Below are positions 6,268 to 32,977 of a stretch of DNA of 33,560 nt, piece after piece (position 1 is the first letter of the stretch; each line of letters starts with the position of its first letter). Under the pieces are notes generated by a model that was not told the DNA's origin, ran no database searches, and saw nothing but the letters and a program-made list of their open reading frames with translations. The DNA lies in IMG/VR virus record IMGVR_UViG_3300025623_000002. One strand, 5' to 3'. Made by a program: the position numbers and the translations under genes. The DNA comes from an uncultured virus (IMG/VR IMGVR_UViG_3300025623_000002) (lineage: Duplodnaviria > Heunggongvirae > Uroviricota > Caudoviricetes).

Positions 6268-6269
6268 AT

Positions 6270-10528: not shown

Positions 10529-10601
10529 AAAAACCATTCCTTCGATATGCTGCCACTAGTTCTTCTGTTATTAATCTTTTAAGTTCTCTTTTCATATTCA
10601 T
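10521..10601 (-). CDS. 26-aa microprotein MNMKRELKRLITEELVAAYRRNGFYE
   Basis: Fills the intergenic gap exactly; TAATG coupling upstream and overlap with the next start. Confidence 0.45.
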   Translation of the reverse strand: MNMKRELKRLITEELVAAYRRNGFYE

Positions 10602-10909
10602 TATTTACCATCTCTCGGTTTATATATTTTAGTTCCTATATATTTCGGTTCAGGTAATGTAGGACTTAAAGGATGTTCAGTATTCATTAAACAACTCCCA
10701 TTATCACTAATAGTTACTTCAGGTAAAGAACATTTTAAGTTTTTATTATGACCACATTTGGTAGCCTCACATTTTCTTACTTTACAATCTGATGCAGTAG
10801 GTATAAACGCAGTTCCTTTTGGTATATATTTTGTTCCGCCACCTGCAATATCACTAATTCTAGAAGCCATTTCTGCATCTTCATTCTTAACTATATCTTT
10901 CCAACTCAT
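10601..10909 (-). CDS. W-leader protein with Cys-rich DUF1540-like domain
   Basis: MSWKDIVK leader; CEATKCGHNKNLKC...I..NGSC. Confidence 0.7.
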   Translation of the reverse strand: MSWKDIVKNEDAEMASRISDIAGGGTKYIPKGTAFIPTASDCKVRKCEATKCGHNKNLKCSLPEVTISDNGSCLMNTEHPLSPTLPEPKYIGTKIYKPRDGK

Positions 10910-10921
10910 TTAATCATCTCC

Positions 10922-11398
10922 TTAATATTCTGCACCATATTGGTTATCTACTTTAACAGGCAGCATTAGTCCATCACCCATTGGTTCTCCCCACATTTCA
11001 TCATCCTTTAGTTTGTAATCTATATATGCTGGATGAACTTCACCCATTCCACCTGAAGGAGTTTGTCGCATATTGGTATCTTTCTTACTATTCGTTTCTT
11101 CCTTATATTCATCAGATGTATCTACTAAGCCTTGAATTAAGTGAAGCAAAGCACTATTGTAGGATTCTTTAGCATGTTCTAACCTGTTAAATTTCTCATC
11201 AATATATTTAAAATCTTCTTCTGATAACTTTCCGTCTAATTTTGGAAATCGCTCATATGCTAAATGCTCAAAATCACCCCAATCTAATTTGGAAAAAGGC
11301 TCTATTTCCAAACTTTCTAATTCGTCTGCTATATCTTCTAATTCTTCCGCAATGCTACCTTTATCATTTATCTTTACTATATCTTTCCACCAACTCAT
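10922..11398 (-). CDS. W-leader acidic hypothetical protein
   Basis: MSWWKDIVK; AGGTGA SD. Confidence 0.75.
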   Translation of the reverse strand: MSWWKDIVKINDKGSIAEELEDIADELESLEIEPFSKLDWGDFEHLAYERFPKLDGKLSEEDFKYIDEKFNRLEHAKESYNSALLHLIQGLVDTSDEYKEETNSKKDTNMRQTPSGGMGEVHPAYIDYKLKDDEMWGEPMGDGLMLPVKVDNQYGAEY

Positions 11399-11430
11399 TT
11401 AATCACCTTAATTTTGTCGTATCTGCAAAT

Positions 11431-11703
11431 TCAGGTGATTCTGCTGTACCACTCAATTTTCTCCTTTATTAGTATATCTTTTATTGTCTCGGCTTCCTTA
11501 TCCCATTCAACATCTTCAGGATTTGTGTCGCCTTTTGCCAAATCCTCAAACAACCTTTGAATATATTTTAAACTTCCTAGTAAATTATTTACCCGCCCTC
11601 CAAGTTCACGAATTACGGCACTATCAGTTCCCTGTCGTAGGGTTTTATTATTAGGATTTCTCTTATCTGCGTCTTCTTTCTTTATTTCATCTTTCCAAGT
11701 CAT
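11431..11703 (-). CDS. W-leader hypothetical protein
   Basis: MTWKDEIKK; ATGA overlap. Confidence 0.7.
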   Translation of the reverse strand: MTWKDEIKKEDADKRNPNNKTLRQGTDSAVIRELGGRVNNLLGSLKYIQRLFEDLAKGDTNPEDVEWDKEAETIKDILIKEKIEWYSRIT

Positions 11704-12026
11704 TCTAAATCCCCCTTACTCTTAGGATAAACCATATCTCTTAATTGACGATATAGTGTTTCATAATCTTTTCTAAGTTCTGCTGCTGATGATACTATTT
11801 CTAAATTCCTTTCATCAAAGCCCTCAAACTTTTTTTGTAATTTTTTATCAGATTTAACTAAATCTAATTTACGCATTTCATCTAATAAATCAGATAAATG
11901 AGTCATCTCTTGACCCATATATTCAGTAGGTTGGGTTTTCTGTAAAAGTTTCTTAAGTTTCTTTTTTTGTTTAGGTTCAACTTTTTCTAAAATTGAAGTA
12001 GATTTAAGTATATTTTTCCAACTCAT
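11700..12026 (-). CDS. W-leader hypothetical protein
   Basis: MSWKNILKS. Confidence 0.75.
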   Translation of the reverse strand: MSWKNILKSTSILEKVEPKQKKKLKKLLQKTQPTEYMGQEMTHLSDLLDEMRKLDLVKSDKKLQKKFEGFDERNLEIVSSAAELRKDYETLYRQLRDMVYPKSKGDLE

Positions 12027-12063
12027 ATCTTACCCTTATCCATTCGCTTGTATGTATAGTTTA

Positions 12064-14052
12064 TCAATTTATGTTTTTAAGTTTAGAAATAATTAATTTT
12101 TCTAACCCGTTATTTTTCATAGATGTTACATATTCATTATAAATATCATCTAATTGCTTTTCAGTAGGGTTTGTTAATTTACTTTGTTTTTCTTTTAGTG
12201 TTTTTATAAATTCCATATGTTGTATCTGCGCTGGTCTATTTAATTTTAAATCTCTAAGTGTATCAAACCATGAATCAGCCTCATCTTTCAAACTATCTAT
12301 ATTATCTCCTGTTTGGCTAGCATTTACATCTTTAATTTTCCTCTTCATGCGATGTGTTTCTTCTTTAGTATTATCAGGTAAATCTCCAAACCCTTCACCT
12401 AAAGCACCAGTACCATTAAATAAATTACTTAATTTTGTTAATTTCTTAACATATTTCTTTTTAAGTTCCTTAATTTTATTTATGTTAGATTTGTTTTCCC
12501 GTTCTGTTATAGATGCGTCAACACGTTCTGTTAATTGTTCTATAGTTAATTTTTCACCTTTTTTACTATTTAAAGTAGTATCAAGCATATCTAAAATTTC
12601 TGTTTCTATTTCAATTATTTCTATATTTAACTTCTCTAGAAGAATATATTTTCCTTTAATTTTCAATGCAGATAAAATACCATTAAGTGCTTTTGATATT
12701 TTTTTCCTTTTACTAACTAATTCTTTAAAATTATCAATAATGGCTAAAGGCTCATTAGGTTTTGAATAACTAATACTATCTTTGAAATCTTCAGTCATTT
12801 CATATCCATCATCATTAATATCTTTTACCCATTGTCGTTTTTGAGGTTTAACTTCTTTAGAGAGTTCGTATAGTTCTTTTATTGATACTCCGTCTAATGG
12901 AATGTCTGCATCTATTAGTGTTATTTCGTTTGATTTATCATTTAAATCTTTTATTGATTCATTTAAATCATCAATTCTAGATTGTTTCATAGGATTTTTA
13001 ATTTCTACCATACAACTAATTATGAGTCTTAATATTTTTAAATTAGATTCAATTTCTAACATAAATTCTTTAAAATCAGGTTTATCCTTTTCAATATCAA
13101 TACCATTATCACCTATTTCATCTTCTAATATTATTATTTTTTTTATTATTTCATATCCAATTAAATCATTATTTTTTTTAAAAAGAAGTGGTAAATGTTC
13201 ATCTGCCTCTTTTATTAATTCAATATTATTTGATTCTATAGGTTCAATAAATTCTTCTATAAATTTAATAGTACTTTCATAATCCATATCAAAATATTCA
13301 GTTAACAATTCTGTTGATTTATCACTTATATATTGATTATCAAATGTAATATCTAATTTATCAAATATAGCATATAATATTTTTTTGGATTTTATAAATC
13401 CGAAGTCTGTTATAATTTTAGAATATCTTTTAGGTATTTTTTCATTATTATTTAAATAACCATTTAATGATTCAGCAAGGCGTTTAATTAATTCATTTTC
13501 ACTGTTAGTAGTAGTCTTTCCTGTATTTAATATTTTTTTAAACATTTCAAGGTCTTTATCTGATTTGTGTTTTTTAGGAATACCATAAATCTCTTTTAAT
13601 CTAAAAATTAATCCACTTTTACGCTTTTTCTCTTCTAATAATAAGTTATATGCTTCAGGATATTTATCTTTAGTTATATTTTTTTCAACATCATCTATTG
13701 CATTTTTAAGAATATTTAAAACTTTAAAATCATCTATTTTCCTTGTTCCTGTATCGTCTTTAGGAGTAGTAGTTTGTGTTTTTTCACCCTCTTCAAGTCG
13801 TTCCGTGTCTGTAAATGTTTTATGATGTATATATGTCCACTCACTATTATTAATATCATCCAAATTAAAAATATCTAATTGAGGAACACCATCTAATTGA
13901 TTATATTTATTTTTTACGTCTTTCATATCCCTAATTAAAGTCTTACTTTCCTTTAAATCCATCTCCCTATATTTACGCAAAATTTTTATTATGATTTCCG
14001 ATAATGGTTTAAGTTTACGTTCTTTATTTTTTAAAATATCCATAAACGACAT
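12064..14052 (-). CDS. Large K/E/I-rich hypothetical protein with F-variant leader
   Basis: 662 aa; MSFMDILKN; GAGGT SD. Confidence 0.75.
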   Translation of the reverse strand: MSFMDILKNKERKLKPLSEIIIKILRKYREMDLKESKTLIRDMKDVKNKYNQLDGVPQLDIFNLDDINNSEWTYIHHKTFTDTERLEEGEKTQTTTPKDDTGTRKIDDFKVLNILKNAIDDVEKNITKDKYPEAYNLLLEEKKRKSGLIFRLKEIYGIPKKHKSDKDLEMFKKILNTGKTTTNSENELIKRLAESLNGYLNNNEKIPKRYSKIITDFGFIKSKKILYAIFDKLDITFDNQYISDKSTELLTEYFDMDYESTIKFIEEFIEPIESNNIELIKEADEHLPLLFKKNNDLIGYEIIKKIIILEDEIGDNGIDIEKDKPDFKEFMLEIESNLKILRLIISCMVEIKNPMKQSRIDDLNESIKDLNDKSNEITLIDADIPLDGVSIKELYELSKEVKPQKRQWVKDINDDGYEMTEDFKDSISYSKPNEPLAIIDNFKELVSKRKKISKALNGILSALKIKGKYILLEKLNIEIIEIETEILDMLDTTLNSKKGEKLTIEQLTERVDASITERENKSNINKIKELKKKYVKKLTKLSNLFNGTGALGEGFGDLPDNTKEETHRMKRKIKDVNASQTGDNIDSLKDEADSWFDTLRDLKLNRPAQIQHMEFIKTLKEKQSKLTNPTEKQLDDIYNEYVTSMKNNGLEKLIISKLKNIN

Positions 14053-14067
14053 TACTATTACCTCTGC

Positions 14068-14298
14068 TTAAAATGGGATATTTTCACTACGCATATTTTT
14101 TCTTTTAGGAGTTATCATAACATCAGGTATGTTACTAGGGGCATCATCTGTTTTATTTTTTAATGTTGTAGATGGGTCTACACCAACTACCGCATAATCC
14201 TTACTAACAGTAACATTACTTCTCTGTTCCGAACCTTCCTTAATTCTTGCTTGCTTCAATTCTCTTTCTAATTGTCTTACACTTTTTTCTTCACTCAT
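14068..14298 (-). CDS. Hypothetical protein
   Basis: 76 aa ORF tightly packed after the portal. Confidence 0.65.
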   Translation of the reverse strand: MSEEKSVRQLERELKQARIKEGSEQRSNVTVSKDYAVVGVDPSTTLKNKTDDAPSNIPDVMITPKRKNMRSENIPF

Positions 14299-14299
14299 T

Positions 14300-15970
14300 T
14301 TATCCTACTCTCCTTTCTGTTCTTTTATCATTATTTTGATTACCAGCATCTTTAGGTAATCCTGTAAATCTTTTATCAGGGGCAACATTCATTCTAGGTT
14401 TGTTTCTCTTTTTAGGGGGTTCTGATTTTGCTTTTTCTGGAACACCCGCTTCTGCCAAACTAGGTTTATTACCCGCTTCCATCATTTGCCCTAATTGGCT
14501 TGCATCAACATCAGTTCCAGCATAAGGGTCAGGTTTGAAATCATCACCATCTGTTTGGGTTTTACCTTGTTCATCTCCTTCTACTGGTTCGGGTTTAGTA
14601 TAAATAAATCCACCTTCATCATCCATTTCTACATCAAACCCTAAATTCTTTATTGAACCTGCAATATTAACTTCCATTTCTCTTAATCGAAGAACAGCAA
14701 TTTCATCTTCTTCTTCAGAAGGTGGTAATTTTAATTCCCAATCAGTAATGCCAAATTCACTAGTCATAAAAGGAAATACATAATTATTCCAAGTTGTTTG
14801 TGCCATCTCTACTGCGCGATTAGTAACAAGAATTTGCATACCTTCGTTATTTAACCCACCACTAGCAGAAGCATCATTCATAAACACTTTACTAACTCCA
14901 TAGAACCCTGATATTCTATCTCTCAAATCATCTTTAACTGCAATATAATCCATTTCCTTAAGGCTGTCCATAAATCTAACCCATTCAACAGAACCCTTAC
15001 CACCTTCAGATTCTATTCCCATTACAGGTATGAAGTGTGGGTCTTGTTCCATCTTCTCTTTAACGCCACGCCAAAAAGATTTCATTGAATCCATATTTCT
15101 AGTTTGAACAGCCAACAATCCCTTCGGCATTCTTGCCTTAGTATATGATGAATTTACATAATTATCCATTGCTATTAAGGTTGTAACATTATTCCATAAT
15201 GTTATTATTGGCGACATACCATATAATCTAGAAGGAGAATATTTACTAAAATGTACTACTTCACCTTTAATGAAATACTGTTCCTCTCCATTTACTCTAT
15301 TAACATAATGAACAGGATATAATTCAGATGCACAAGTTTCACATAACTCAGTTTGATGACTATGTACTCTATCTCTATGTCTTAAACAAATAAATCCACC
15401 TTTACCTCTTTCCCCTAATTCATTAGAATAAATATGCATAGTAACAGGGTCGCCTCTAAATATTTCTTTAATTTTATGCATTCTAATTTTTGAATTATTA
15501 TCTAAATAATATTCTTTAACATTAACTAAATATGCATCATCCATAATATTCAAATCATCTTCTAATTCTTTTAATACATCAATAAATAATTGTTCTGCAC
15601 CATTAACATAACCATCTAAAAAATCTTTAGCATAACTTAATTGTTTAGGTTCAGGTTTAACTAAATTGGTAGAACCGCAATCAACACATTCCTTTACAGG
15701 AGTAGAATGTTCTTTATCACATTCTGCACACTTTTCTGTAAATTTTCCTTCCCATATATATCCCCGTCTAAATATTTCTTGTTTCAATTGAGTTATACAA
15801 GTTCGTACTATTGTTGATTGTTGAACTATATGATAAATTATAGGACTAGTTAACATATAGGAATTATCTCTTTCTTGTATTCCTAAATTAAACACCGTTC
15901 TATCTGCGGGTTTAGGTGTAGTATTTCTAAACAAGTTAGTAAATGAAAACTTTCTTTTTTCTTCAACCAT
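14300..15970 (-). CDS. Portal protein with Zn-ribbon insertions
   Basis: EVVHF..YSPSRLYGMSPI, MPKGLL, RISGFYGVS motifs of HK97-type portals; position between terminase and protease. Confidence 0.85.
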   Translation of the reverse strand: MVEEKRKFSFTNLFRNTTPKPADRTVFNLGIQERDNSYMLTSPIIYHIVQQSTIVRTCITQLKQEIFRRGYIWEGKFTEKCAECDKEHSTPVKECVDCGSTNLVKPEPKQLSYAKDFLDGYVNGAEQLFIDVLKELEDDLNIMDDAYLVNVKEYYLDNNSKIRMHKIKEIFRGDPVTMHIYSNELGERGKGGFICLRHRDRVHSHQTELCETCASELYPVHYVNRVNGEEQYFIKGEVVHFSKYSPSRLYGMSPIITLWNNVTTLIAMDNYVNSSYTKARMPKGLLAVQTRNMDSMKSFWRGVKEKMEQDPHFIPVMGIESEGGKGSVEWVRFMDSLKEMDYIAVKDDLRDRISGFYGVSKVFMNDASASGGLNNEGMQILVTNRAVEMAQTTWNNYVFPFMTSEFGITDWELKLPPSEEEDEIAVLRLREMEVNIAGSIKNLGFDVEMDDEGGFIYTKPEPVEGDEQGKTQTDGDDFKPDPYAGTDVDASQLGQMMEAGNKPSLAEAGVPEKAKSEPPKKRNKPRMNVAPDKRFTGLPKDAGNQNNDKRTERRVG

Positions 15971-17307: not shown

Positions 17308-17319
17308 TATATCACCGCC

Positions 17320-18753
17320 CTAAAAGTTCAGTCCTAGCATACCGCCTAAAGAGTTATTCGTAGGAGTAGGAGATTCAAATAACCCCATATCATCTAATAA
17401 CATAAAAACATCTTGTGAATTTTGAGTAGCGGCATTGGCTAATGCTAAACTCATAACTAAATCGTCATGTGCGCCAACTCCCTCAAATTTACCTGAATGA
17501 GTAATAGAAAACATAGACAATTCTTCTACTAATAAATTAGTTAATCTCTTACTAGTATTATCACCATAAGGAAAATTGATTTTTCCATTTTCTATGTTCA
17601 TTTGAAGGTTCAAAATGATTTCTTGTTTTCTTTTTCTAGTAGTATTGAAATCTGTAACATTCAAATCTGAAATGTTTCTTAATTCTTGAGTAAATGCTTT
17701 AGCAAAGGTATTAGTTTCGTATAGGATTTCTTCAGGTTCAAATATTTTACCAATCAATCTAATTTTATCTATGTTTTCTCTAAACTCAACATTTTTTGCT
17801 CTATCAACATGAACTACGGTTTTATTCATATGTTCATCTACTTCTAATACAGTAATAACATTATAATCACCATCTGTTGAAATAGCAGGGTCAACCCCAA
17901 CATAATATTTGTAGCCTTTGTGTTTTCTATGTCCTAATTTAAGAACGTAATCTTTATTTTTACATTTATCTATAAATTGAGGATTAAATAATGCTGTTCC
18001 AGTGGAAATCGGAACACATAGATATTCCCTTGTAAACTTTAAAGAACCAATTTCCTTTTTCCTACGCATAAGGGCATCATAATCCCATCTATCAACCCAA
18101 AGTGGTTCATTTAAGGCATTAAGACATGGATATTTAGTAACAGTATATGCTTCATTATCCTCTAATTGTGCAAAAATATCAGTATAAGTGAAAGGAGTTC
18201 CAATCATTCTCAACTTAGAAGAATGGTGTAGGGTTGGTATCATATCTCCAAAGAACCAATCAGTTACTTTCTCAATACCTACTAAACTAAATTCTTTCAA
18301 AGGGTCATCAATAATGATTTCTTGCGGGTGAAGTCCTCTAATTTGAGAACCAACTGAACGCTCTAAAATTGCGTTTCCATTTGTAAGTTGTATATTTCCA
18401 ATAGCCCAACCACGACTAGGTTTGTATGGTTTTAATGCTGGAAGATTAAAATATCTATCAATTTCTCGCATGTGAACTAATGTCTGTTTTTGGTTAGATG
18501 AAATGTATAGCATTTGGAATGGTGGTTCTTGGAATACTAAGTTCCACACAACCCAACTATGCATAAATACAGATTTACCGTGGTCGCGGCTACAAATGAT
18601 AACTGTTCTATCTGTTGTTTGCATACTCTCTAACCATTCATGCATATATTCAGGATATAATAATCCCAATACATTTTGGAAAAAATATGGAAAGGAAGTT
18701 TTAGATAATTCCATATCCATTTGAGTTACAAAATCTAAATTATCCAATTCCAT
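17320..18753 (-). CDS. terL: Terminase large subunit
   Basis: Walker A SRDHGKS, Walker B IIIDD, IGTP coupling motif, nuclease VGVDPA and HDDLVMS. Confidence 0.92.
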   Translation of the reverse strand: MELDNLDFVTQMDMELSKTSFPYFFQNVLGLLYPEYMHEWLESMQTTDRTVIICSRDHGKSVFMHSWVVWNLVFQEPPFQMLYISSNQKQTLVHMREIDRYFNLPALKPYKPSRGWAIGNIQLTNGNAILERSVGSQIRGLHPQEIIIDDPLKEFSLVGIEKVTDWFFGDMIPTLHHSSKLRMIGTPFTYTDIFAQLEDNEAYTVTKYPCLNALNEPLWVDRWDYDALMRRKKEIGSLKFTREYLCVPISTGTALFNPQFIDKCKNKDYVLKLGHRKHKGYKYYVGVDPAISTDGDYNVITVLEVDEHMNKTVVHVDRAKNVEFRENIDKIRLIGKIFEPEEILYETNTFAKAFTQELRNISDLNVTDFNTTRKRKQEIILNLQMNIENGKINFPYGDNTSKRLTNLLVEELSMFSITHSGKFEGVGAHDDLVMSLALANAATQNSQDVFMLLDDMGLFESPTPTNNSLGGMLGLNF

Positions 18754-18754
18754 A

Positions 18755-19345
18755 CTATGTCTCCATAAACATAAACATAGTTGCTTCTAATTCACTCATT
18801 GCCTTTACAATATTCCAAGCCTTATTCATTGAATTAGGATTCCAAACTAATATTTTATCCCCGCCAATTCTTTTTCTTTCATTTTCAACTACTTCCATTG
18901 GTAATCCTTCAGGAATTTCTTCATCAGTAGGATTTTTAATCCAACCTCTTCTTTGAAATGCAGCAATCCAACCACCATCAGGTATAGTTTTATTATTTAT
19001 ACTACCTAAAATAGGTTTATCCTTTATCAATTGCATTCTTTTATCTATTAAATTAGAAGAAATTCTTTTTTTTCTATATGGAGTAGCAATAGTGCTTCCG
19101 GCTAAAACCACATAACTTTTTTTTTCAGACCAACCCGAATAACCCACAATCATATCTCCGTCTAATGCAATTAGATATTTTACATTATCAACAGAATATG
19201 GACTTAAAGTGGGGCGTGTTTTTCTAGGGTTTTTATTTTGAACATATATTTTTTGCCAATTTTCTTCGCGAGATTCTCCCCATTGACTATTCCATAGTTC
19301 TAACATCTCTGCTTCTGTATATATTTTACTAGGGTATGTTATCAT
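18755..19345 (-). CDS. GNAT-family acetyltransferase-like protein
   Basis: YLIALDGDMIVGY strands; IATPYRKKRISSNLI degenerate acetyl-CoA motif A; AFQRRGW; C-terminal WNIVKA. Confidence 0.55.
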   Translation of the reverse strand: MITYPSKIYTEAEMLELWNSQWGESREENWQKIYVQNKNPRKTRPTLSPYSVDNVKYLIALDGDMIVGYSGWSEKKSYVVLAGSTIATPYRKKRISSNLIDKRMQLIKDKPILGSINNKTIPDGGWIAAFQRRGWIKNPTDEEIPEGLPMEVVENERKRIGGDKILVWNPNSMNKAWNIVKAMSELEATMFMFMET

Positions 19346-19349
19346 AATA

Positions 19350-22112: not shown

Positions 22113-22116
22113 ATTA

Positions 22117-24378
22117 TTAACCTCTTATATTATGTTCTTCTGCTAACCAAGTAATTGGTTGAAACTTACGGTTTCCACTTAAAACAACATCTTCATTTAT
22201 TACATATTTTATAGATTCTTGTATTTCATTAAGAAGTGATTTTCTTACATGTTCGTATCTATCTAATAATAAATCACGCATGTCTTTAATAAGAGTTTGT
22301 TTATTTTCATCATCATCTATTTTTTCATTTTTATTTTTATCTAAAATATCCCAAGCACGACGTATTTCATTGTTACCATTTATATTCCCATCTAAACCCT
22401 TACTAAACATTATAAATTTCCCAAAATTTCTACTTACATTATATTCGATTATTTCTGCTTCGGGAGATGTAAGGGTTTCTTCATCTTCATCCTCAGTATT
22501 AAAAACCATTTTTTTGAATTTTTGAAGAGTTATTTTATCTGCATTATTTTGAGTTTCAAAATCTATATGTGTCTTAACCATATTGTTAAGTATTGTTTTA
22601 AATTTATTTATATCCATCAGACTCTCTATTGCCATCCCAATATCAAAAAATTCTAATCCTGTTAATCTTTCTATTTTATTTTCAGTTTCATCATCTACCT
22701 TACCTTCAAATAATAACAAACCTTCTCTTTCATTAGAAGTTAAAGTAGCCCCTAAATATGAATCTTCTAGTTTATTTAATAATTTTTTAACACCCGTTTT
22801 AAATCTCAAATCACTTTCGTTATCTACATGTCTGTCTACCGGAAGTATTGTTGCCATTAAATTCCAAGTATTAGAATTATAATTATTATATTTATTTTGT
22901 AATTCATCTAATAAGTCGTCGTCTATTTTAGTGTCTGTTTTAAGTTGTTTTGTTTCATGTTTATCAAAATAACTTTTTAACTTAATAAGCAATTTACTTG
23001 TTTTAATTTTACTTTTAACTTCGGTTAACATCTCATTAAGTAATGGTTCTAGTTGTTCTTTATTTTCATGGTTAAAATAAATATCAAACATATACTTATA
23101 GGTATCATAATCATCAACAAGAAGTCTAAATGACTTATTAGTACCTTGTAACATTTGCTTTTTATCTGACTTTGTTCCAGTCGTTATAGCCTTTAAAAAA
23201 TATTCTATTGATACCTTTGTTGATGGTTGTTCAATCTCATTTTTACGTCGCCCAGTAATCCTTGTTAATTCTTCCGTACTTTTTTTACCTGCTTTTTTAC
23301 GCGAACTTTTTTCACTTGAATCAAAATCAATATATTCAGCAAACTTCAAAGTTTGAGCCAACTTAGTTCTTTTAATAGCATTATAATTATTAGTTGTTCC
23401 ATTAGAAAATATAAATAATTGTTCTTTAGTCATAAATTTAGGAAACCCTGTAAACGCAAATAAACTTCTTTCTTTATTTCCATACGCCCTTTCAGTTTTT
23501 GATTTGCTAGGTAGTTTTAATTTAGGTGGTGGGGCTAACAGGTTCTTACCCGAAAGAGGTTGAGGATTCGCATTAAATCCGAACGTAGACCAATCTATAT
23601 GTCTAAATTTAGATTCTAATGGTTTACCACCTATAGTATATGTTTCATTTATTTTATCATATAATACAGGTTTAGGTGTATCAATATCAAGGTCGAGTTT
23701 TTCAGCCTTAATCTTAATAGCATCTGCAACTTTACCTTCTATCTCCATAAGTATCATAGTTCCATCTTTAATTTCATACCCTAATATTTCAGGATTAGAT
23801 TTTAATTTCTCTATGATTTTTTTCTTATCAATTTTATTATTATTAATTAATCTACCTAATATCACCTGTCTTTGAGTAATTGCATCTTCCGCTAATACTC
23901 TTTTTTTGGTAACTAGTTTTTTCTTATCTCTAAAAATATGTTCACTATAAGAAACCTTACCAGTTAAATATTCAATAAGTTTTTCAATATCATTATTATA
24001 TAGTTCCATAATAATACTATGATTATGATTACTATGCATATTTTTCAATTCTATAATCCATTTTATTTTTTCACGATATTTTGAGAATTCTTTCATAGGT
24101 AATTTAACATGTGAAATTGATATTGGTGGTTCTTTAAAATAATCAACTTCAGGTGGGGCTAACAGTTTCTTATGTAGTATAGTTAAAATTTCTTGAAATT
24201 TAGGTTCAGTCATTTTATCCGAAGGAACAGGGGGTTTACCAGTATGAATATGTTTATCATAAAAATCACTAACTGCATTATTCATTTCTGATTTATTATA
24301 TCCTAATAATGGATATACTAATTTCATTTTAGGCGACATAACTTTCGCTCTATCTTTAAGAATTAATTGCCAACTCAT
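22117..24378 (-). CDS. Large W-leader hypothetical protein
   Basis: 753 aa; MSWQLILKD. Confidence 0.78.
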   Translation of the reverse strand: MSWQLILKDRAKVMSPKMKLVYPLLGYNKSEMNNAVSDFYDKHIHTGKPPVPSDKMTEPKFQEILTILHKKLLAPPEVDYFKEPPISISHVKLPMKEFSKYREKIKWIIELKNMHSNHNHSIIMELYNNDIEKLIEYLTGKVSYSEHIFRDKKKLVTKKRVLAEDAITQRQVILGRLINNNKIDKKKIIEKLKSNPEILGYEIKDGTMILMEIEGKVADAIKIKAEKLDLDIDTPKPVLYDKINETYTIGGKPLESKFRHIDWSTFGFNANPQPLSGKNLLAPPPKLKLPSKSKTERAYGNKERSLFAFTGFPKFMTKEQLFIFSNGTTNNYNAIKRTKLAQTLKFAEYIDFDSSEKSSRKKAGKKSTEELTRITGRRKNEIEQPSTKVSIEYFLKAITTGTKSDKKQMLQGTNKSFRLLVDDYDTYKYMFDIYFNHENKEQLEPLLNEMLTEVKSKIKTSKLLIKLKSYFDKHETKQLKTDTKIDDDLLDELQNKYNNYNSNTWNLMATILPVDRHVDNESDLRFKTGVKKLLNKLEDSYLGATLTSNEREGLLLFEGKVDDETENKIERLTGLEFFDIGMAIESLMDINKFKTILNNMVKTHIDFETQNNADKITLQKFKKMVFNTEDEDEETLTSPEAEIIEYNVSRNFGKFIMFSKGLDGNINGNNEIRRAWDILDKNKNEKIDDDENKQTLIKDMRDLLLDRYEHVRKSLLNEIQESIKYVINEDVVLSGNRKFQPITWLAEEHNIRG

Positions 24379-24509
24379 ATTAAATCACTACTTTCTAAAA
24401 TAATTCTAATATCATTTATGGTTGGATTACCTTTCATTACTTTTATAATTTCATTTAGAGCGTCTGACCTTTTAGCCCCTATGTTTTTAATGGTATCTTC
24501 CCAACTCAT
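24375..24509 (-). CDS. 44-aa W-leader microprotein MSWEDTIKNIGAKRSDALNEIIKVMKGNPTINDIRIILESSDLI
   Basis: Not in the ORF track; ATGA overlaps at both ends; GGGGGT SD. Confidence 0.7.
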   Translation of the reverse strand: MSWEDTIKNIGAKRSDALNEIIKVMKGNPTINDIRIILESSDLI

Positions 24510-24865
24510 TTTGCCTTACCCCCCGTACATTTTTCAAAATTATCTATCATTTTTTCTAGTTCTGCTAATCCCCAAGTGGGAAAGTTACTATCTTTTTGTG
24601 GTTTTTTAACTTCATCTATCATATGCAAAATTGTTCCCACTACCACATCACAAGGCTTTTCTAATATGCTCAGAAAATAATCTTTCATACCGTTAACATC
24701 TTCTTCAAACAACCCCTCTCTAGAATGACCTAATTTTTCAGCGTAATATTCAACTAATTTTTCAATAAACATACTATACTCAGTTTTTAATTGAGAACAA
24801 CACGATTCATACGCATCGAACTTTACATCTAAAATTTGTATTTTTAAAACATCTTGCCAACTCAT
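24506..24865 (-). CDS. W-leader hypothetical protein
   Basis: MSWQDVLKI. Confidence 0.75.
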   Translation of the reverse strand: MSWQDVLKIQILDVKFDAYESCCSQLKTEYSMFIEKLVEYYAEKLGHSREGLFEEDVNGMKDYFLSILEKPCDVVVGTILHMIDEVKKPQKDSNFPTWGLAELEKMIDNFEKCTGGKAK

Positions 24866-24871
24866 TGTAAC

Positions 24872-25207
24872 TTATCCCTCCAAATTACCATCTAAACTAT
24901 ACAGTATTACATCTGATACTGCTACTTCTAATGATATAATCAGTTCTCTTAATTCTTTATCTAATACCCCTGCGTTTCTTACCGCCATCCTATAATCATC
25001 ATCATGCTCCATGTCGTAAGGTTCTCCTTTCTCGTCTATTAAATACGGGTTATTTTTATGATGAGCATATTTTTTAGCGTTTAATAAGAACTGTTGAAGT
25101 TGTCTAATTTCATCAAGAGTCATAGAACCAAAATTAGGGTGAGTTTGCATAAGTTTAACCATAGCATTTACTTCGGGTTTATTCTTTAAGATATTATTCC
25201 AACTCAT
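24872..25207 (-). CDS. W-leader hypothetical protein
   Basis: MSWNNILKN. Confidence 0.75.
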   Translation of the reverse strand: MSWNNILKNKPEVNAMVKLMQTHPNFGSMTLDEIRQLQQFLLNAKKYAHHKNNPYLIDEKGEPYDMEHDDDYRMAVRNAGVLDKELRELIISLEVAVSDVILYSLDGNLEG

Positions 25208-25614
25208 TGCATCAACTCTATCATTAATCCTTTTTCATCAATTTCTGTAACTTTCAGTTCTGAATTATTCTTCAGTTTATCTGCAACCTTATACAAATGA
25301 GGATTCGTTATTCGACCATAGGCTAACCAAAATGGCCTATATTCTCCTAATACCCCATTAGTGTCCATTAATGCCCCAACTACCATTTTTTCTGCAAACC
25401 CTTTTCTTTGGTAATCAGGATGAATAGAAATATGTAATTCTCTTATCTTTCCATCATTAAATGGCTTCATGTTTTCAAGGCTACTATAATCTTTAGGCCG
25501 GTAATGCAAAATTAGTTTATCTCCGTATTCCTCAAACAAAACATTGTGAAACCAACCATCATCATCTACTGAAATAGGACTAATTTCCGCTTTTAATAAC
25601 TGTTGCCAACTCAT
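25204..25614 (-). CDS. W-leader GNAT-like acetyltransferase
   Basis: MSWQQLLKA; HISIHPDYQRKGFAEKMV matches GNAT motif A (Q/R-x-x-G-x-A). Confidence 0.65.
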   Translation of the reverse strand: MSWQQLLKAEISPISVDDDGWFHNVLFEEYGDKLILHYRPKDYSSLENMKPFNDGKIRELHISIHPDYQRKGFAEKMVVGALMDTNGVLGEYRPFWLAYGRITNPHLYKVADKLKNNSELKVTEIDEKGLMIELMQ

Positions 25615-26270
25615 TGTAACTTCTCCATTTTACTTCTAACATCTAACCAAACTTCAGGATGGTTTTGTGCTAACACCTCTTTGATAATTTGCATCTGATG
25701 AACAATAATTGTATCTTGCCTCTTATGTACTAACTTACCTTTGAACTCCATCAAGTATCTCAAACTCTCACGGACTTCTTTAGCCAACTTAGTTAGTGAA
25801 TCAATATGTTTAGCATCCAAATCATCGGAATCAAAAAGCATATCTAACTTAATATCTAATCTAGAAATATTTGCACTCAAGGTATCAACCTCATTTATTT
25901 CTTGCATAGCAATCATATTTGCAGCAGACTGTTGAACTAAAGGTTGCACATGATTTTTAATATGTCTAACTACTTGGTCAGCAGTACAATTTAACATTAA
26001 ACCAACTTCTTCAGGAGTTATATTTGCACCATGTAATTGCAATTCAATCTCACTTCTATGTTCACTAATACAAATGTTACATCTAGGATTAGAAGAATTA
26101 ACATATCCTTCCATGTGATTTCTTTGATGTCTTGAAGCAGTTCCACTAGACCAATCCATTTGGACATCCAAATCATCAGCAGTAATTATCATATTATCTA
26201 ATTCATCTTCTAGAGTTTGCCTATTATCTAAATTACAAAATACACAACGTTTTCTGGTTATCATTTCCAT
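25611..26270 (-). CDS. Tandem CxxC...HxxxH Zn-HTH protein, candidate terminase small subunit
   Basis: CVFC...RHQRNH and CNIC...RHIKNH repeats followed by helices; lies upstream of terL in the operon. Confidence 0.5.
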   Translation of the reverse strand: MEMITRKRCVFCNLDNRQTLEDELDNMIITADDLDVQMDWSSGTASRHQRNHMEGYVNSSNPRCNICISEHRSEIELQLHGANITPEEVGLMLNCTADQVVRHIKNHVQPLVQQSAANMIAMQEINEVDTLSANISRLDIKLDMLFDSDDLDAKHIDSLTKLAKEVRESLRYLMEFKGKLVHKRQDTIIVHQMQIIKEVLAQNHPEVWLDVRSKMEKLQ

Positions 26271-26629
26271 AATTCCTCTTCAGGGTAAAGTTCCATAGCC
26301 TCTTCTATATCTTCTCTAAAGTTTTCAGCGACTTCTAACCAATCAACATCTGATATTGAATCTCCTACTTCATCTCTATCATTAACGGGAGATAATAATT
26401 CATCCATGAAACCTTTACTTTGAGTCATCATTTCAGGTAACTCTTTTGCTATTGTATTTAATATATCATCTATAACATCTTGTTTAGTCCAGTTGAATTC
26501 AAGATAACCTTTTACCTTTAATTTAATTAACTGTACTATAGGAAAATAAAGTTCTTCAGTATTCATAACCCATAAATCTGCACTTCTAGTAGCAGTTGCG
26601 GTATCTTTCAATATCTTTTTCCAACTCAT
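26261..26629 (-). CDS. W-leader acidic hypothetical protein
   Basis: Start moved to ATG 26629 (MSWKKILKD); GGAG SD; LWVMNTEELY...VDWLEVAE. Confidence 0.7.
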   Translation of the reverse strand: MSWKKILKDTATATRSADLWVMNTEELYFPIVQLIKLKVKGYLEFNWTKQDVIDDILNTIAKELPEMMTQSKGFMDELLSPVNDRDEVGDSISDVDWLEVAENFREDIEEAMELYPEEELWK

Positions 26630-26701
26630 CTTAATACTCTCCACAATAAGGACACATAATCCCTGAATAATTATCACTGTTAATATTTATTTTACAACAC
26701 T

Positions 26702-27868
26702 TTAACATATTAATTCCCTCTTTAAAATATCTCGCCAATCATTAACTTCTACATCATTAGTTTTTTTAGTTTGAGATTTAACTTCCGGTTTATCAAATCT
26801 AATAGTAACAGTATTATGTTTCCTACCTGTTTTTGGTTCAGTAAACTTTCTATTATTTTCCTTCAATAATATTTTTGCCATCTGATTTGCTACCCCTCTA
26901 GTTAATTTAAAATATCCTCGTTTAAGTGTGAAAAATTCAGGTATTCCTAAATTATTCCTAACTCTATTTTGAAAATCTTTTCTTGTTGGCAATAAATGAC
27001 TTTTACTCTCTATTTCTCGCATAACCTCGCCATATCGAAATGCACCATTTCTACCTGCCATATCAGGTTCAATATATTTACGAACTATTCTCTTAATACT
27101 ATTAATTTCTAATGCTTTTTCAGCCCAACCTGTTTGTCCTTTTTTTCCTAATTTAATAGGATTATCTTTACTTATACCTACACCGTCTTTTAAGGCTTCA
27201 ATACCTTCTTCTATGATTTCATGTAAACTTTTAGAACTTGTAATTTTAACCTCACCTTCTCTACCATACATAACTTGCCAAAAAGGTGGTTCGGCTACAC
27301 CTTTAGAATAGTCATACCAAGATTCAGGACATGCCGGTGCAGGGTTTAAATCCCTTTTAGGGAATTTTTTCATTTTAATTTTTCTTTTATTTTCATAATT
27401 TTTAGTACGATAGTGTCCATATACTTCTTCTTCATCTACAACTTTACCACTATCTTCATCTACTTCTTTATCGGTAAAAGAAATATTTCTAGGATTTAAA
27501 GGGTTTTGAGGGCTACTATAAGAATCCATTAAAAGTCTAACTTTATTTAATTTTATTATATCATCTATACCAATATCTTCTCCATCAACAATATTAGTAA
27601 TAATTCCTATAATTTCAGAACCACCTTTACCACTAGTATAAGGTGAAGGGGATTTATCACCTTGTAATCTACCAATTAATCCTTGTTGTTTAAACATCTG
27701 ATAAAGACTAATATCATTTTCCATAAATAATGTTTCACCACTTATTTCTGATAACTGTTGTTGCCAATTATCAAACGATTTTCCAAACATTTGGACATTA
27801 GCACCAGTTAATTTAACATCATTTTTTAAGATTATATTTGACGTTCTTTCTAGGTTTCTTTTTGCCAC
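26702..27868 (-). CDS. Hypothetical protein with C-terminal WRDILK motif
   Basis: 388 aa; GTG start with GGGGGT SD. Confidence 0.75.
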   Translation of the reverse strand: MAKRNLERTSNIILKNDVKLTGANVQMFGKSFDNWQQQLSEISGETLFMENDISLYQMFKQQGLIGRLQGDKSPSPYTSGKGGSEIIGIITNIVDGEDIGIDDIIKLNKVRLLMDSYSSPQNPLNPRNISFTDKEVDEDSGKVVDEEEVYGHYRTKNYENKRKIKMKKFPKRDLNPAPACPESWYDYSKGVAEPPFWQVMYGREGEVKITSSKSLHEIIEEGIEALKDGVGISKDNPIKLGKKGQTGWAEKALEINSIKRIVRKYIEPDMAGRNGAFRYGEVMREIESKSHLLPTRKDFQNRVRNNLGIPEFFTLKRGYFKLTRGVANQMAKILLKENNRKFTEPKTGRKHNTVTIRFDKPEVKSQTKKTNDVEVNDWRDILKRELIC

Positions 27869-27986
27869 GTTTTTTACCCCCTATTGATTTATTATTAAAT
27901 AAAGATGAAGTTCCACTATTACTAGTAGTAACTGCCCCTGCCATTCTTAGTATTGTAAACCATTTAGTGTTAAGAGAAGATGCCAC
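27819..27986 (-). CDS. 55-aa basic microprotein (MASSLNTKWFTILRMAGAVTT...KKRGKKKPRK)
   Basis: Hand-translated; carries the WFTILR variant of the leader; GTG start. Confidence 0.5.
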   Translation of the reverse strand: MASSLNTKWFTILRMAGAVTTSNSGTSSLFNNKSIGGKKRGKKKPRKNVKYNLKK

Positions 27987-28017
27987 TTATCTAAGCGCAA
28001 TACTACTTGGACTATAA

Positions 28018-28107
28018 CTATTCTTCTTCTCCTTCTATTGCTCTAATAATAGCATACCAGTATTCTTCTTCTTGAGTTAGAATTTTATTATTCTTATCTT
28101 TTTTCAT
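28018..28107 (-). CDS. 29-aa microprotein MKKDKNNKILTQEEEYWYAIIRAIEGEEE
   Basis: Hand-translated; contains WYAIIR. Confidence 0.35.
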   Translation of the reverse strand: MKKDKNNKILTQEEEYWYAIIRAIEGEEE

Positions 28108-28129
28108 TTTTATTAAACCAATTTCTATT

Positions 28130-28429
28130 TCACTCCAATCCTTTAAACGAATCTCTTTCTGAAATACCAGCATCATCCATTATATCTTGCAATCTAGCAA
28201 CAAGATACTCATTTGTGAACACCTGCCAATTACCTTCTTCGGTTTGCATTGCTTCTAATCCACTTTCTAACCAAGTCAACCATCGGTGAGCATCATGTTC
28301 TAACTGTCCTTTCAACTTAGGCAAATACTCTAATCTAAACCTTCTAAGAAAATCCTTTACTTGCGCTACAGTCAATTCATTAGGATTGTAATGGGGTTTT
28401 TCCTTTCTAATTATATTAAACCAATTCAT
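28130..28429 (-). CDS. W-leader hypothetical protein
   Basis: MNWFNIIRK. Confidence 0.72.
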   Translation of the reverse strand: MNWFNIIRKEKPHYNPNELTVAQVKDFLRRFRLEYLPKLKGQLEHDAHRWLTWLESGLEAMQTEEGNWQVFTNEYLVARLQDIMDDAGISERDSFKGLE

Positions 28430-28644
28430 TTTAATTGCCTTCTTAACATTGGTTTTTTAAATGTATTATATAATTCCCATAATGGTTCACTTGAATTAAG
28501 CCTAGTTATTTCATCATTCAGTTTTTTCATTCTATAAAGTGCTTGTGCGTCAGATTTAAAATCTTTAACTTTATCTCCTACTTCTGTGTACCATTCAGTA
28601 TTACCCGATATGTGTCCTTTCTTAATTTGTTTTTTCCAATCCAT
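28426..28644 (-). CDS. W-leader hypothetical protein
   Basis: Start moved to ATG 28644 (MDWKKQIKK), which removes the overlap with the upstream gene. Confidence 0.65.
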   Translation of the reverse strand: MDWKKQIKKGHISGNTEWYTEVGDKVKDFKSDAQALYRMKKLNDEITRLNSSEPLWELYNTFKKPMLRRQLK

Positions 28645-28648
28645 AATA

Positions 28649-29131
28649 TCATTTCCCCCTTGCCATAACTTCAGCACACCTTCTACAATAGTGTAACTCT
28701 TTAGGTGAACCCTTTGAATGTATTTTACCATCTCTTATATATTTTTTAGTGCCTAGAGATACCGGTTTTTTGCATCGAACACAGCGAAATTTACTAAGAT
28801 TAGAATTTGGTTTTTTCTTTTCTTTTCCTTCAGGTCGCCCACTTGCATTAAATCCTTTAATACCATATTGCACTTCACCTTCTTGTGCCATTGATGTTCC
28901 TAACCTAGTTTTTCTCTCTTCGATTAATTTTTTACCTTCAACATTCCTGTTTAGTGGTAAATCTGTTCCTCTTCCCATTGTTCTACTAGTGCCTTTGGGT
29001 GCATGACCTTCCTCTTCAATAGATTTTACTCTTTCGTTAGGTTTTAATCGTTCACCACCCATTATATCAACAGGTTTCCTGTTCCTATTCTTTCTAGGCC
29101 GATTTCTTTTAATTAAATCAAACCAAGTCAT
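28649..29131 (-). CDS. W-leader basic protein with C-terminal Zn finger
   Basis: MTWFDLIKR; CVRC...CRRC. Confidence 0.72.
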   Translation of the reverse strand: MTWFDLIKRNRPRKNRNRKPVDIMGGERLKPNERVKSIEEEGHAPKGTSRTMGRGTDLPLNRNVEGKKLIEERKTRLGTSMAQEGEVQYGIKGFNASGRPEGKEKKKPNSNLSKFRCVRCKKPVSLGTKKYIRDGKIHSKGSPKELHYCRRCAEVMARGK

Positions 29132-29394
29132 TTTTTCCCACCTTCTAATATATTCCTACTAACTTGGCAACACAATCTAATCTTTTGTGTACTTTCTAAA
29201 AACCAAAAAGAATCCTTATCCCAATCAAATTTATTCTCAACATGATTACAAAGTTCTCTTCTTCCCATGTTTTGCAAATCACCATCTATACTAACATCAA
29301 GAATATCACCTTTCGGATGCACTAACTTCTTATCTAACCAAACATAGGTACTACCCATGAATGCAATCAATTTTCTAATTATCCATTGCTTCAT
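29128..29394 (-). CDS. Hypothetical protein
   Basis: 88 aa; AGGTGA SD; ATGA overlaps. Confidence 0.7.
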   Translation of the reverse strand: MKQWIIRKLIAFMGSTYVWLDKKLVHPKGDILDVSIDGDLQNMGRRELCNHVENKFDWDKDSFWFLESTQKIRLCCQVSRNILEGGKK

Positions 29395-30092
29395 ACTAAA
29401 TCACCTACTACAATATCATGAATATTATTTGAACTATCTAAATATTGCAATATTAGTTTTACTTTTTCTTCATGCTTGATAACATCGTCATAAAAAATAT
29501 CTATAGATGAAGGAAACAAATATACATTCTCATGCTTTAATTGCCATACTTTATTACTGTAACTACCAGTTTCATCCCACGTTGTTATATTTTCATCGTA
29601 AATAGTCAATGGTCTAATTACCAGTAAGTTATCCATGTGATTTAGTAGTTCATTTAAAGGCTGGTGGAAAATGGAAGTTCTGTTGTTTTCGGAGAGCCAT
29701 CCATCATCTTCTTCTTGCATTGCGTTATACTCTTCCCACATTCTTTCATTCTCTAATTCATTTTCTGTTTTTTCCGGTTCAATCATATGGAGTTTATTAT
29801 ATCTTTTCGTTATATTATTTTTAGCAATATTAACTATCTTTTTGAATTTTTCATTCAACACATTATGCCCATTAAGAGTTAGACCACGATTACGCTTAAT
29901 CCAATTAATAGTTTCTTCCTTAGTTTTCTGAGTTTCAATTGGTTGGCTCTTAGTCCAAGCAGACGGTTGTTCATGATATTTTTTCGGAGTAACATTTCCA
30001 CCTGACTTATTAGGACTTGACTTATTTCTATTCTTCTTTTGAGCATTACTAGGCCACTTCTTTTTTCTTTTTAGAATATCAAACCAAGTCAT
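29391..30092 (-). CDS. W-leader hypothetical protein
   Basis: MTWFDILKR; GGGTGA SD. Confidence 0.75.
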   Translation of the reverse strand: MTWFDILKRKKKWPSNAQKKNRNKSSPNKSGGNVTPKKYHEQPSAWTKSQPIETQKTKEETINWIKRNRGLTLNGHNVLNEKFKKIVNIAKNNITKRYNKLHMIEPEKTENELENERMWEEYNAMQEEDDGWLSENNRTSIFHQPLNELLNHMDNLLVIRPLTIYDENITTWDETGSYSNKVWQLKHENVYLFPSSIDIFYDDVIKHEEKVKLILQYLDSSNNIHDIVVGDLV

Positions 30093-30096
30093 TTTT

Positions 30097-30525
30097 TCAC
30101 CCTTTATTTTCTATGCCTAATTTAACATTTGGTGTTCCAAACAAACCATCAATAATTCGCCTGTATGGTTTACTAATATAACTATTGTATGCAACAAAAT
30201 CTATTAATTCTTGAACGGAACTAAATTCTGTCTTAGTTAAATATTGTTCTATTTCTTCAGAATCCCACATAAAATGCCCCCCATTAGAAAACGAATTACC
30301 ATCCAGTCTTTTGGGAGAACCACGCTCATCATATTTTTTATATTGTAATCCTAATCTAGATGCTGTGTTTTTAATTTCTTCTTCAATTTCATTAGACCAA
30401 GAAATAGGAATATAACCAATTGCCTTTTGTTGATTTGAATTAAACATATTTTCTAATTCTCTTAATTTATTTAGATTGTGTTCTTTATCGAACCTTTCAT
30501 TCTTTAAAACACTAAACCAATCCAT
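30097..30525 (-). CDS. W-leader hypothetical protein
   Basis: MDWFSVLKN; GGTGA SD. Confidence 0.75.
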   Translation of the reverse strand: MDWFSVLKNERFDKEHNLNKLRELENMFNSNQQKAIGYIPISWSNEIEEEIKNTASRLGLQYKKYDERGSPKRLDGNSFSNGGHFMWDSEEIEQYLTKTEFSSVQELIDFVAYNSYISKPYRRIIDGLFGTPNVKLGIENKG

Positions 30526-30667
30526 TTTATCACCAAAGTTGTGGGTACTGAAATGTTTTACCTAATGAAAACTGAAAAATGTGGTGGAATTTATTTAGCA
30601 CTAGCGCGATTTTTTTTGTTGGGTAGTAACCATAAACAGTATAAGGATAATAGTAATGTGCCATTTA

Positions 30668-30877
30668 TTATTCCTCGATAAACTTTAGTGTTGTTTGTTT
30701 TGAATTAGGTTTCTGTTCATCAGCACTAATAACTTTAGTTGGTTTAGGTTTACCTTTAAACCATTTACTCGCAGGTTTAGATGATACAGTTGCACCGTCA
30801 ATTAATTCTTCAGGTAGTTTTGTTTGTGTTGTATTCTTTTTATTTTTACTATCTTTGATAATATTAAACCAGTTCAC
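30668..30877 (-). CDS. W-leader basic small protein
   Basis: GTG start, MNWFNIIKD; GGTGA SD. Confidence 0.65.
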   Translation of the reverse strand: MNWFNIIKDSKNKKNTTQTKLPEELIDGATVSSKPASKWFKGKPKPTKVISADEQKPNSKQTTLKFIEE

Positions 30878-32919: not shown

Positions 32920-32977
32920 GGTTGTCCCTTCCCTCGGCACACTTGGGGTTTCTCACAAAGTTCCACACCATATGGTT

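Follow-up and report, generated by a model that had tools for sequence, protein, structure and literature searches.

In a 33,560-bp stretch of DNA from an uncultured virus (IMG/VR record IMGVR_UViG_3300025623_000002), called the window throughout, 17 unrelated proteins begin with one short peptide of the form M-[S/T/N/D]-W-x-x-hydrophobic-hydrophobic-K/R. The analysis confirmed that this shared leader is real, and found that a closely similar peptide ends two scaffold proteins of the same virus. Judging from sequence and from analogy with other capsids, we give an even chance to the reading that x-W-x-[D/E/N]-[I/V]-[L/I]-K is a docking helix (here called a peg) that copies the scaffold tail and would load accessory proteins into the procapsid.

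The leader peptide and the genes that carry it

An earlier note on this DNA had listed 17 starts of this kind, and all 17 were found to open minus-strand open reading frames (ORFs) with the stated peptide. The leader genes, in window coordinates, are the following.

10601..10909, minus strand: 102 residues, MSWKDIVK; Cys-rich, DUF1540
10922..11398, minus strand: 158 residues, MSWWKDIVK; acidic, isoelectric point (pI) 4.4
11431..11703, minus strand: 90 residues, MTWKDEIK
11700..12026, minus strand: 108 residues, MSWKNILK; sole leader family conserved across relatives
12064..14052, minus strand: 662 residues, MSFMDILK; two genes downstream of portal, with a second, internal leader-like copy DSWFDTLR towards the C-terminal end at 12253-12276
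22117..24378, minus strand: 753 residues, MSWQLILK; no family (Pfam, ESM Atlas)
24375..24509, minus strand: 44 residues, MSWEDTIK
24506..24865, minus strand: 119 residues, MSWQDVLK
24872..25207, minus strand: 111 residues, MSWNNILK
25204..25614, minus strand: 136 residues, MSWQQLLK; sub-threshold GNAT match
26261..26629, minus strand: 122 residues, MSWKKILK; true start at the internal ATG at 26629; acidic, pI 4.2
28130..28429, minus strand: 99 residues, MNWFNIIR
28426..28644, minus strand: 72 residues, MDWKKQIK; starts right after the upstream gene's stop
28649..29131, minus strand: 160 residues, MTWFDLIK; very basic, pI 10.4, with CxxC...CxxC near the C-terminal end
29391..30092, minus strand: 233 residues, MTWFDILK
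30097..30525, minus strand: 142 residues, MDWFSVLK
30668..30877, minus strand: 69 residues, (GTG)NWFNIIK

The leader departs from its common form by a Phe in place of Trp at 14052, an additional Trp at 11398 and a GTG start at 30877, and position 6 is Glu at 11703, Thr at 24509 and Gln at 28644. Read by eye, a purine-rich, Shine-Dalgarno-like stretch precedes most leader starts by 5-12 nt. Trp has a frequency of 0.014 in the proteins of the contig, and the probability of finding it at residue 3 of at least 16 of 47 proteins is 2e-18. The Trp codon TGG is fixed, while the hydrophobic positions vary in synonymous and conservative codons (ATA, ATT, ATC, GTT and TTA at position 6; CTT, TTA, TTG, CTA, ATT, GTT, GTA and ATC at position 7). 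Because the codons at positions 6-7 vary synonymously while TGG stays fixed, the constraint acts on the peptide and not on the DNA.

The proteins behind the leader are unrelated, as the earlier note had claimed: with the leader removed, the 17 bodies gave no phmmer match among themselves at E<1, and their lengths do run from 44 to 753 residues. The carriers also appear to be soluble, with a transmembrane-like segment in 0 of 15 scored carriers compared with 12 of 85 other proteins, and their pI ranges from 4.2 to 10.4. The classes that the note had named for individual carriers fared unevenly. The Cys-rich carrier is the 102-residue protein, which matched DUF1540 at 24.3 bits against a cut-off of 22.1, and two carriers are acidic (pI 4.2-4.4); the GNAT label stands on a sub-threshold match of the 136-residue protein (E 0.013), and the Zn finger label on a sub-threshold match together with the visible CxxC...CxxC of the 160-residue protein. 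For the 753-residue protein, the best ESM Atlas score of 0.76 was uninformative, and Pfam at E<=5 gave sub-threshold EF-hand matches only.

The window corresponds to bases 12,695-46,254 of a 78,572-bp viral contig, whose G+C content is 30.6%. The contig consists of two divergent arms. Its minus-strand arm holds the capsid and tail genes, including those for a tail tube, major capsid protein (MCP), S78 protease-scaffold, an 861-residue ligase-domain protein, portal and terminase large subunit (TerL). The plus-strand replication arm encodes a UvrD helicase, an RFC-like AAA clamp loader, a split family-B polymerase (PolB), a second ATP-dependent ligase, XPF/ERCC4, a Cas4-like nuclease, a TFIIB-like zinc ribbon and a ThiF/E1-like protein. 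The closest named matches of the MCP are haloarchaeal tailed viruses of Haloarcula, at 23-24% identity. Magroviruses are described in PMC5434244 as joining a haloarchaeal-like tailed-virus structural module to a near-complete archaeal-type replication module. The contig matches this architecture, and was assigned on that published description to the magroviruses, which are viruses of Marine Group II (Poseidoniales) archaea.

A six-frame regular-expression scan of the whole contig gave 16 matches, all on the minus strand and all within window positions 10,601-32,971, with 0 matches in the replication arm or tail genes. The expression cannot see the Phe variant or the GTG start; 15 of the 16 matches are leaders listed above, and the sixteenth is a 47-residue ORF at 32971 with different spacing. 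The leader is thus absent from recognised replication and tail genes and present only on the capsid-gene arm, as had been expected, and the proposal of a portable amino-acid-level signal on unrelated soluble proteins was borne out. The claim that all carriers lie in the head-morphogenesis operon did not hold: only five of the 17 genes lie between portal and scaffold/protease, and the other 12 form a small-gene block that starts the arm, upstream of a 920-residue gene, a GNAT-like gene and TerL. The landmark genes are as follows.

4864..6267, minus strand: HK97-type MCP, with a conserved N-terminal NALLK/AG at 6175-6195 (the slash marks the position after Lys)
6270..7448, minus strand: S78 prohead protease fused to a helical scaffold domain (Pfam Peptidase_S78, E 4.9e-10, residues 26-175); C-terminal candidate peg MTWDDVHNLV at 6282-6311; FDILK at 6930-6944, at the end of the protease domain; LLLKA at 7416-7430 and FTILKS at 7383-7400, both close to the N-terminus
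10298..10537, minus strand: 79-residue coiled-coil paralog of the scaffold C-terminal region, with terminal candidate peg MEWEDIHELV at 10313-10342
14300..15970, minus strand: portal protein, a landmark of the head module
17320..18753, minus strand: TerL, used as a landmark
18755..19345, minus strand: 196-residue GNAT-like protein, directly upstream of TerL
26702..27868, minus strand: 388-residue protein that lacks an N-terminal leader and instead ends in the same peptide, NDWRDILKRELIC (26705-26743, then the stop)

The 920-residue protein (19350-22112, minus strand) is conserved in 71 loci and has neither a family nor a leader; its gene stands between the promoter-proximal leader block and the GNAT-like gene with TerL. 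A 52-residue ORF (28018-28176, minus strand) overlaps the 3' part of the 99-residue leader gene (28130-28429) and contains KDWSEIEIG, which is like the scaffold-tail form of the peg; its status as a gene is doubtful.

The confinement to the capsid-gene strand was repeated when related genomes were scanned. In a first set of 80 IMG/VR loci around TerL relatives (69-100% identity, 1.41 Mb), motif-opened ORFs numbered 492 on the gene strand versus 0 on the opposite strand, and in 34 further loci from a second clade the counts were 244 versus 1. In five relatives rated complete (strand counts 15/0, 10/0, 13/0, 8/1 and 9/1), the leaders lie within ~12 kb either side of TerL and on the TerL strand, and a reversed control pattern produced 1 match in total across the same five. 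The logo of 497 canonical copies reads M; S over T, N and D; W; F, Q, E or K; D over E, N and S; I over V and T; L over I and V; and K. Leader genes of the relatives occupy fixed slots. Among 515 of them, 230+34 lie between portal and ligase/protease, beside the scaffold paralog, 188 lie upstream of the 920-residue gene, 31 fall in the interval from there to TerL, and 11 in the interval from TerL to portal.

Across the relatives, 169 of 678 protein clusters include a leader. Core genes are present in 66-84 of 81 loci, whereas the leader genes of the window are mostly singletons or members of clusters of 2-12; the exception to this variability is the 108-residue protein (11700-12026), whose family has 80 members. 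When 82 representative tagged proteins of the relatives were compared with Pfam, 75 had no family and seven had one: four PAP2, one DUF5754, one tRNA nucleotidyltransferase and one HAD_SAK_1. Taken together, the carriers have the look of polymorphic cargo, comparable to the internal proteins of T-even phages. In an outgroup (L161 and L163-L165; MCP ~45% identical, 62 kb), which represents a single lineage, neither leaders nor a Trp tail on the protein upstream of MCP were found, and this joint absence is consistent with leader and Trp tail belonging together. No description of the peptide was found in the magrovirus, archaeal capsid-targeting or Poseidoniales-virus literature, including the text of PMC5434244 and PMC11706807, with supplements outside the search.

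The four PAP2 assignments are tagged soluble phosphatases of the PAP2 superfamily (E 2e-7 to 3e-13; L016:2121-2711, L012:2781-3374, L054:10322-11122 and L051:9940-10467). The tRNA nucleotidyltransferase (CCA-adding/poly(A) polymerase family; L186:4729-5967) and the HAD 'Swiss Army Knife' RNA-repair domain (L186:4221-4721) are encoded by adjacent tagged genes of one relative, and it is possible that this pair are tRNA-repair enzymes of counter-defence.

Scaffold tails, peptide position and neighbouring genes

The protease-scaffold ends in ...SMTWDDVHNLVRGD, and the 79-residue coiled-coil protein, which groups with the scaffold C-terminal region by BLAST, ends in ...SMEWEDIHELVNTMG. A position-specific scoring matrix of leader residues 1-6, built from the relatives only, was slid over 23,804 positions in all proteins of the contig. 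Among real internal positions, the tail of the 79-residue protein ranked first (16.6 bits) and that of the protease-scaffold third (10.3 bits). The form [M/L]-x-W-x-[D/E]-[I/V/L]-[H/N]-x-hydrophobic was present in 43 of 43 distinct protease-scaffold tails (73 proteins) and in 28 of 30 distinct tails of the 79-residue family, and W382 of the protease-scaffold was invariant in an alignment of 53 sequences. Leaders and scaffold tails have M-x-W-x-[D/E]-[I/V] in common. This match of the first six residues to two scaffold tails suggests a stronger link to the capsid than the leaders alone could show.

An AlphaFold model of the protease-scaffold, based on the same 53 sequences (each sharing at least 55% identity with the window protein), has a mean predicted local distance difference test score (pLDDT) of 47 and suggests, at low confidence, a scaffold helix at residues 282-362, a linker and a tail helix at 382-390. 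PDB sequence searches with the protease gave no usable match.

The peptide is not bound to the N-terminus. In the family of the 388-residue protein, Trp occurs within the last 12 residues of 28 of 30 members and W-x-x-[I/V/M]-[L/I/V/M]-K in 21, and two members of the most divergent clade bear an N-terminal leader instead. The model of the 388-residue protein (pLDDT 74.5) places its C-terminal peg as a helix on a disordered linker. Its fold gave no Foldseek match to the PDB at E<=0.001, and the best Z of 6.8 in VIA-align wide was within the helical-bundle background. The GNAT-like family upstream of TerL behaves similarly: L079 (E 2e-21 to the window protein) and L063 have an N-terminal leader, and the homologs in L011, L017, L019, L075 and L044 have the C-terminal end W-x-[D/S]-[I/V]-[L/V]-[R/K]. 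Thus in two cargo families the peptide is N-terminal in some viruses and C-terminal in others.

Internal copies were found in four two-module proteins, which combine an N-terminal leader with S-W-x-D-[I/V/F]-[I/L/V]-K at the module junction.

L005:3827-4471, two-module leader protein
L006:3107-3700, two-module leader protein
L058:11412-12152, two-module leader protein
L048:931-1605, two-module leader protein

In three homologs of these proteins the internal copy is kept and the flanks and downstream module are altered. The downstream module occurs elsewhere as a separate leader gene, and the two-module proteins may be polyprotein cargos. On sequence grounds the peptide looks like a position-independent docking peg, because it matches the scaffold tail, swaps between N- and C-terminus within families and occurs as internal copies. 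Its C-terminal and internal occurrence also disfavours any role that needs the first codons, such as translation start or N-terminal modification.

Several neighbouring genes were recorded as well. The contig encodes two proteins with an ATP-dependent DNA ligase domain, the canonical one being 514 residues long and located in the replication arm (L225:14837-16381, plus strand). The second is the 861-residue protein (window 7481-10066, minus strand; domain at residues 251-431), which is kept in 70 relatives and whose gene sits in the head module with the scaffold paralog on one side and the protease on the other. Two neighbours in the replication arm are the genes for the ThiF/E1-like protein (E 4e-19) and the TFIIB-type zinc-ribbon protein (below the Pfam cut-off) (L225:10152-10826 and L225:9114-10034). 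A 222-residue protein among the tail genes (2743-3411, minus strand) has sub-threshold matches to small P-loop GTPases (SRPRB, MMR_HSR1, Roc).

Metatranscriptome contigs identical to the window, which come from four marine runs of one study, cover positions 4864-6921 (MCP and the beginning of the protease gene) far better than the rest of 20 kb; such contigs cannot rank genes or give timing, and the uncovered parts carry no meaning. The same contigs include short identical pieces of the 102-, 158- and 662-residue leader genes and of the 79/86-residue genes. The coverage of MCP and protease looks like RNA and not DNA carry-over, although carry-over is still possible and the contigs are no proof.

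Proposed capsid loading weighed against other explanations

The peg would be a short amphipathic helix that copies the C-terminal tail of the protease-scaffold. By analogy with HK97-fold systems, this tail would anchor the scaffold on the inner face of the assembling shell, and a soluble protein bearing the peg on one of its free ends would be built into the procapsid during assembly, where the peg most likely binds the receptor site of the scaffold in the interior, most likely on the MCP. In this way the virus could load a large and rapidly exchanged accessory set, 17 proteins here and at least 169 clusters across relatives, with a few recognisable enzymes among them (GNAT-like protein, PAP2 phosphatase, CCA-adding enzyme, HAD RNA-repair domain). 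Two later steps are put forward with less confidence: N-terminal pegs may be cut after the Lys by the S78 head protease, freeing the cargo, and, most tentatively, the cargo might exit together with the DNA upon infection and be active ahead of viral gene expression. The most complete version of this proposal is a magrovirus 'capsid address code', in which a scaffold-mimicking helix of eight residues, at either end or between modules, would load well over 100 interchangeable effector families (including GNAT-like, PAP2, CCA-adding, RNA-repair phosphatase and two-module cargos) as a DNA-delivered first strike. We regard it as possible but on the doubtful side.

Cleavage after the Lys, which the earlier note had also proposed, is plausible for N-terminal pegs and the S78 head protease because [IL]-L-K is conserved in both the MCP leader and the protease. 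Every listed MCP N-terminus has [L/I]-L-K followed by A, S or Q, K29 of the MCP is conserved in at least 90% of 114 homologs down to 27% identity, and the protease motifs EF-x-ILKS and A-[K/R]-FDILK are invariant. In 407 cargo bodies, [ILV][ILV]K was observed 202 times versus 276 expected (z -3.3), whereas the mirrored motif was not depleted (303 versus 270). Counts of the cut motif in the portal, TerL and protease families were discarded as evidence since the family members are not independent.

A number of observations weigh against capsid loading or against its cleavage step. The depletion of the cut motif in cargo bodies is just 27%, leaving 202 copies. C-terminal pegs stop 1-5 residues past the Lys, and because a cut there would release no cargo, cleavage cannot be what this residue generally serves; the occurrence of the peptide at the extreme C-terminus in some families argues that docking, and not cleavage, is the conserved function. 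FDILK in the protease may be structural, as it lies inside the Pfam S78 match (residues 26-175), and the protease model (pLDDT 47) is too poor to tell a buried from an exposed FDILK. Positions 7-8 of the peptide differ, being [L/I]-K in leaders versus [H/N]-x in scaffold tails. Covariation between scaffold tail and leader within a locus gave no signal, with few pairs and both partners nearly invariant. The MCP, as opposed to the portal, protease or a host protein, is presumed by analogy to be the receptor. The 12 leader genes at the promoter-proximal start of the arm occupy what is an early-gene position in many phages, and the tagged CCA-adding enzyme and HAD RNA-repair domain would work equally well as ordinary cytoplasmic proteins.

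These last observations also fit a different hub for the peg, such as the protease domain, the portal, a host chaperonin, a proteasome activator or a ubiquitin-like system, with the carriers acting as unpackaged intracellular effectors. The promoter-proximal small genes resemble a classic early or accessory block, PAP2 needs a virion location no more than the two RNA enzymes do, W-x-x-[I/L] helices are generic protein-binding motifs, and the contig encodes a ThiF/E1-like protein. However, in all relatives examined the protease-scaffold and its 79-residue paralog terminate in this motif, a tie to head assembly; tagged genes are most numerous between portal and protease, and the replication genes include none. 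We therefore consider another hub unlikely. It is less probable still that the peg brings the carriers into the procapsid just as helper components of scaffold or core, which are degraded or expelled at maturation and never reach the next host. The two scaffold proteins do have the peg, and the conserved 108-residue family (80 members, K/E-rich) is encoded within the head module, with A or S following the Lys as at the MCP site. Yet assembly factors are normally conserved, while tagged genes are mostly singletons and vary between closely related viruses, the tagged GNAT-like, PAP2 and nucleotidyltransferase proteins have no obvious assembly role, and the putative cut motif is mildly avoided in carrier bodies.

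Clustering of the leader genes in tandem, and starts that are all A/T-rich after the ATG, could point to the remnant of one ancestral gene that multiplied by duplication, its bodies changing past recognition and its N-terminus surviving for some trivial cause such as efficient translation initiation or mRNA structure. We find this explanation very improbable: synonymous variation at the hydrophobic positions beside an invariant TGG speaks against an RNA element, bodies of 44-753 residues without mutual similarity at E<1 speak against common descent, and the motif also occurs at C-termini and in interiors, switches ends within homologous families and recurs on the scaffold tails.

In the surface ocean, magroviruses rank with the most abundant viruses of archaea, yet the majority of their genes lack a known function. 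Should the peptide prove to be a capsid address, roughly one third of the genes in the capsid arm of this virus would be explained as virion-delivered accessory proteins, the carriers would probably be factors of counter-defence or host take-over, and a simple sequence rule would be at hand to spot such genes in hundreds of uncultured genomes. Cargo loading would then have evolved by copying the docking tail of a scaffold, which would bridge phage internal proteins and encapsulin loading, and a tag of eight residues could be useful for engineering protein loading into HK97-fold capsids. A true address code would be without precedent in archaeal viruses and would have the largest cargo repertoire known for tailed viruses. 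Even if the hub is another, the peptide would still be a virus-wide short linear motif organising dozens of orphan proteins.

Comparison with known systems

The C-terminal tails of scaffold or protease proteins dock to the shell interior in HK97, P22, 80alpha and herpesviruses, and HK97 gp4 reportedly carries a C-terminal targeting tail. Like these, both the protease-scaffold and its paralog terminate in a short predicted helix on a flexible linker. Elsewhere the tail is found on one or two assembly proteins, whereas here it appears to be copied onto many unrelated passengers. Encapsulins load their cargo through a short C- or N-terminal peptide on diverse enzymes, which docks inside an HK97-fold shell. 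The magrovirus peptide likewise seems usable at either end of diverse cargo, as the 388-residue and GNAT-like families suggest. It differs in its motif, in its polymorphic viral cargo and in belonging to a virus with a DNA-packaging capsid and with genes for portal, TerL, S78 protease and tail tube.

DarB of phage P1 is an anti-restriction enzyme delivered with the DNA from an HK97-type head, and its N-terminal 30 residues suffice for capsid loading, according to passages of PMC9024508. In contrast to the present case, that signal is known on one protein and depends on Dar proteins that are added stepwise, with no short motif common to many. The C-terminal propeptide of the SPN3US protease has been proposed, in a section of PMC7411985, to direct that enzyme into the prohead.

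The nearest parallel is phage T4, in which the internal proteins IPI-III and Alt are directed into the prohead by a short capsid-targeting sequence (CTS) at the N-terminus, which the prohead protease gp21 removes; these proteins are non-essential, enter the host by injection together with the DNA and affect its defence or transcription, as stated in portions of PMC9958956 and PMC7411985. Both systems place one N-terminal peptide on unrelated proteins, with a conserved leader on hypervariable bodies. The earlier note had called the leader an archaeal analogue of the T4 signal. The gene-level pattern agrees with this, but homology does not, since the peptides have no sequence likeness and the protease here is Pfam S78 (HK97 type), unlike the gp21 type of T4. 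The T4 CTS is said to address the scaffolding core, whereas the magrovirus peptide appears to copy the scaffold's own tail, and because of this copying the peg would be expected to vie with the scaffold in binding its receptor. The magrovirus peptide also occurs at C-termini and in interiors, has an archaeal host and, as known from sequence, a far larger repertoire (17 per genome and at least 169 clusters in relatives). The peptide is most aptly classed as a candidate variant of T4-type targeting and of HK97- and encapsulin-type docking peptides, new in its copy of a scaffold tail, its use at either end, its HK97-type protease, its archaeal virus and its unusually large repertoire.

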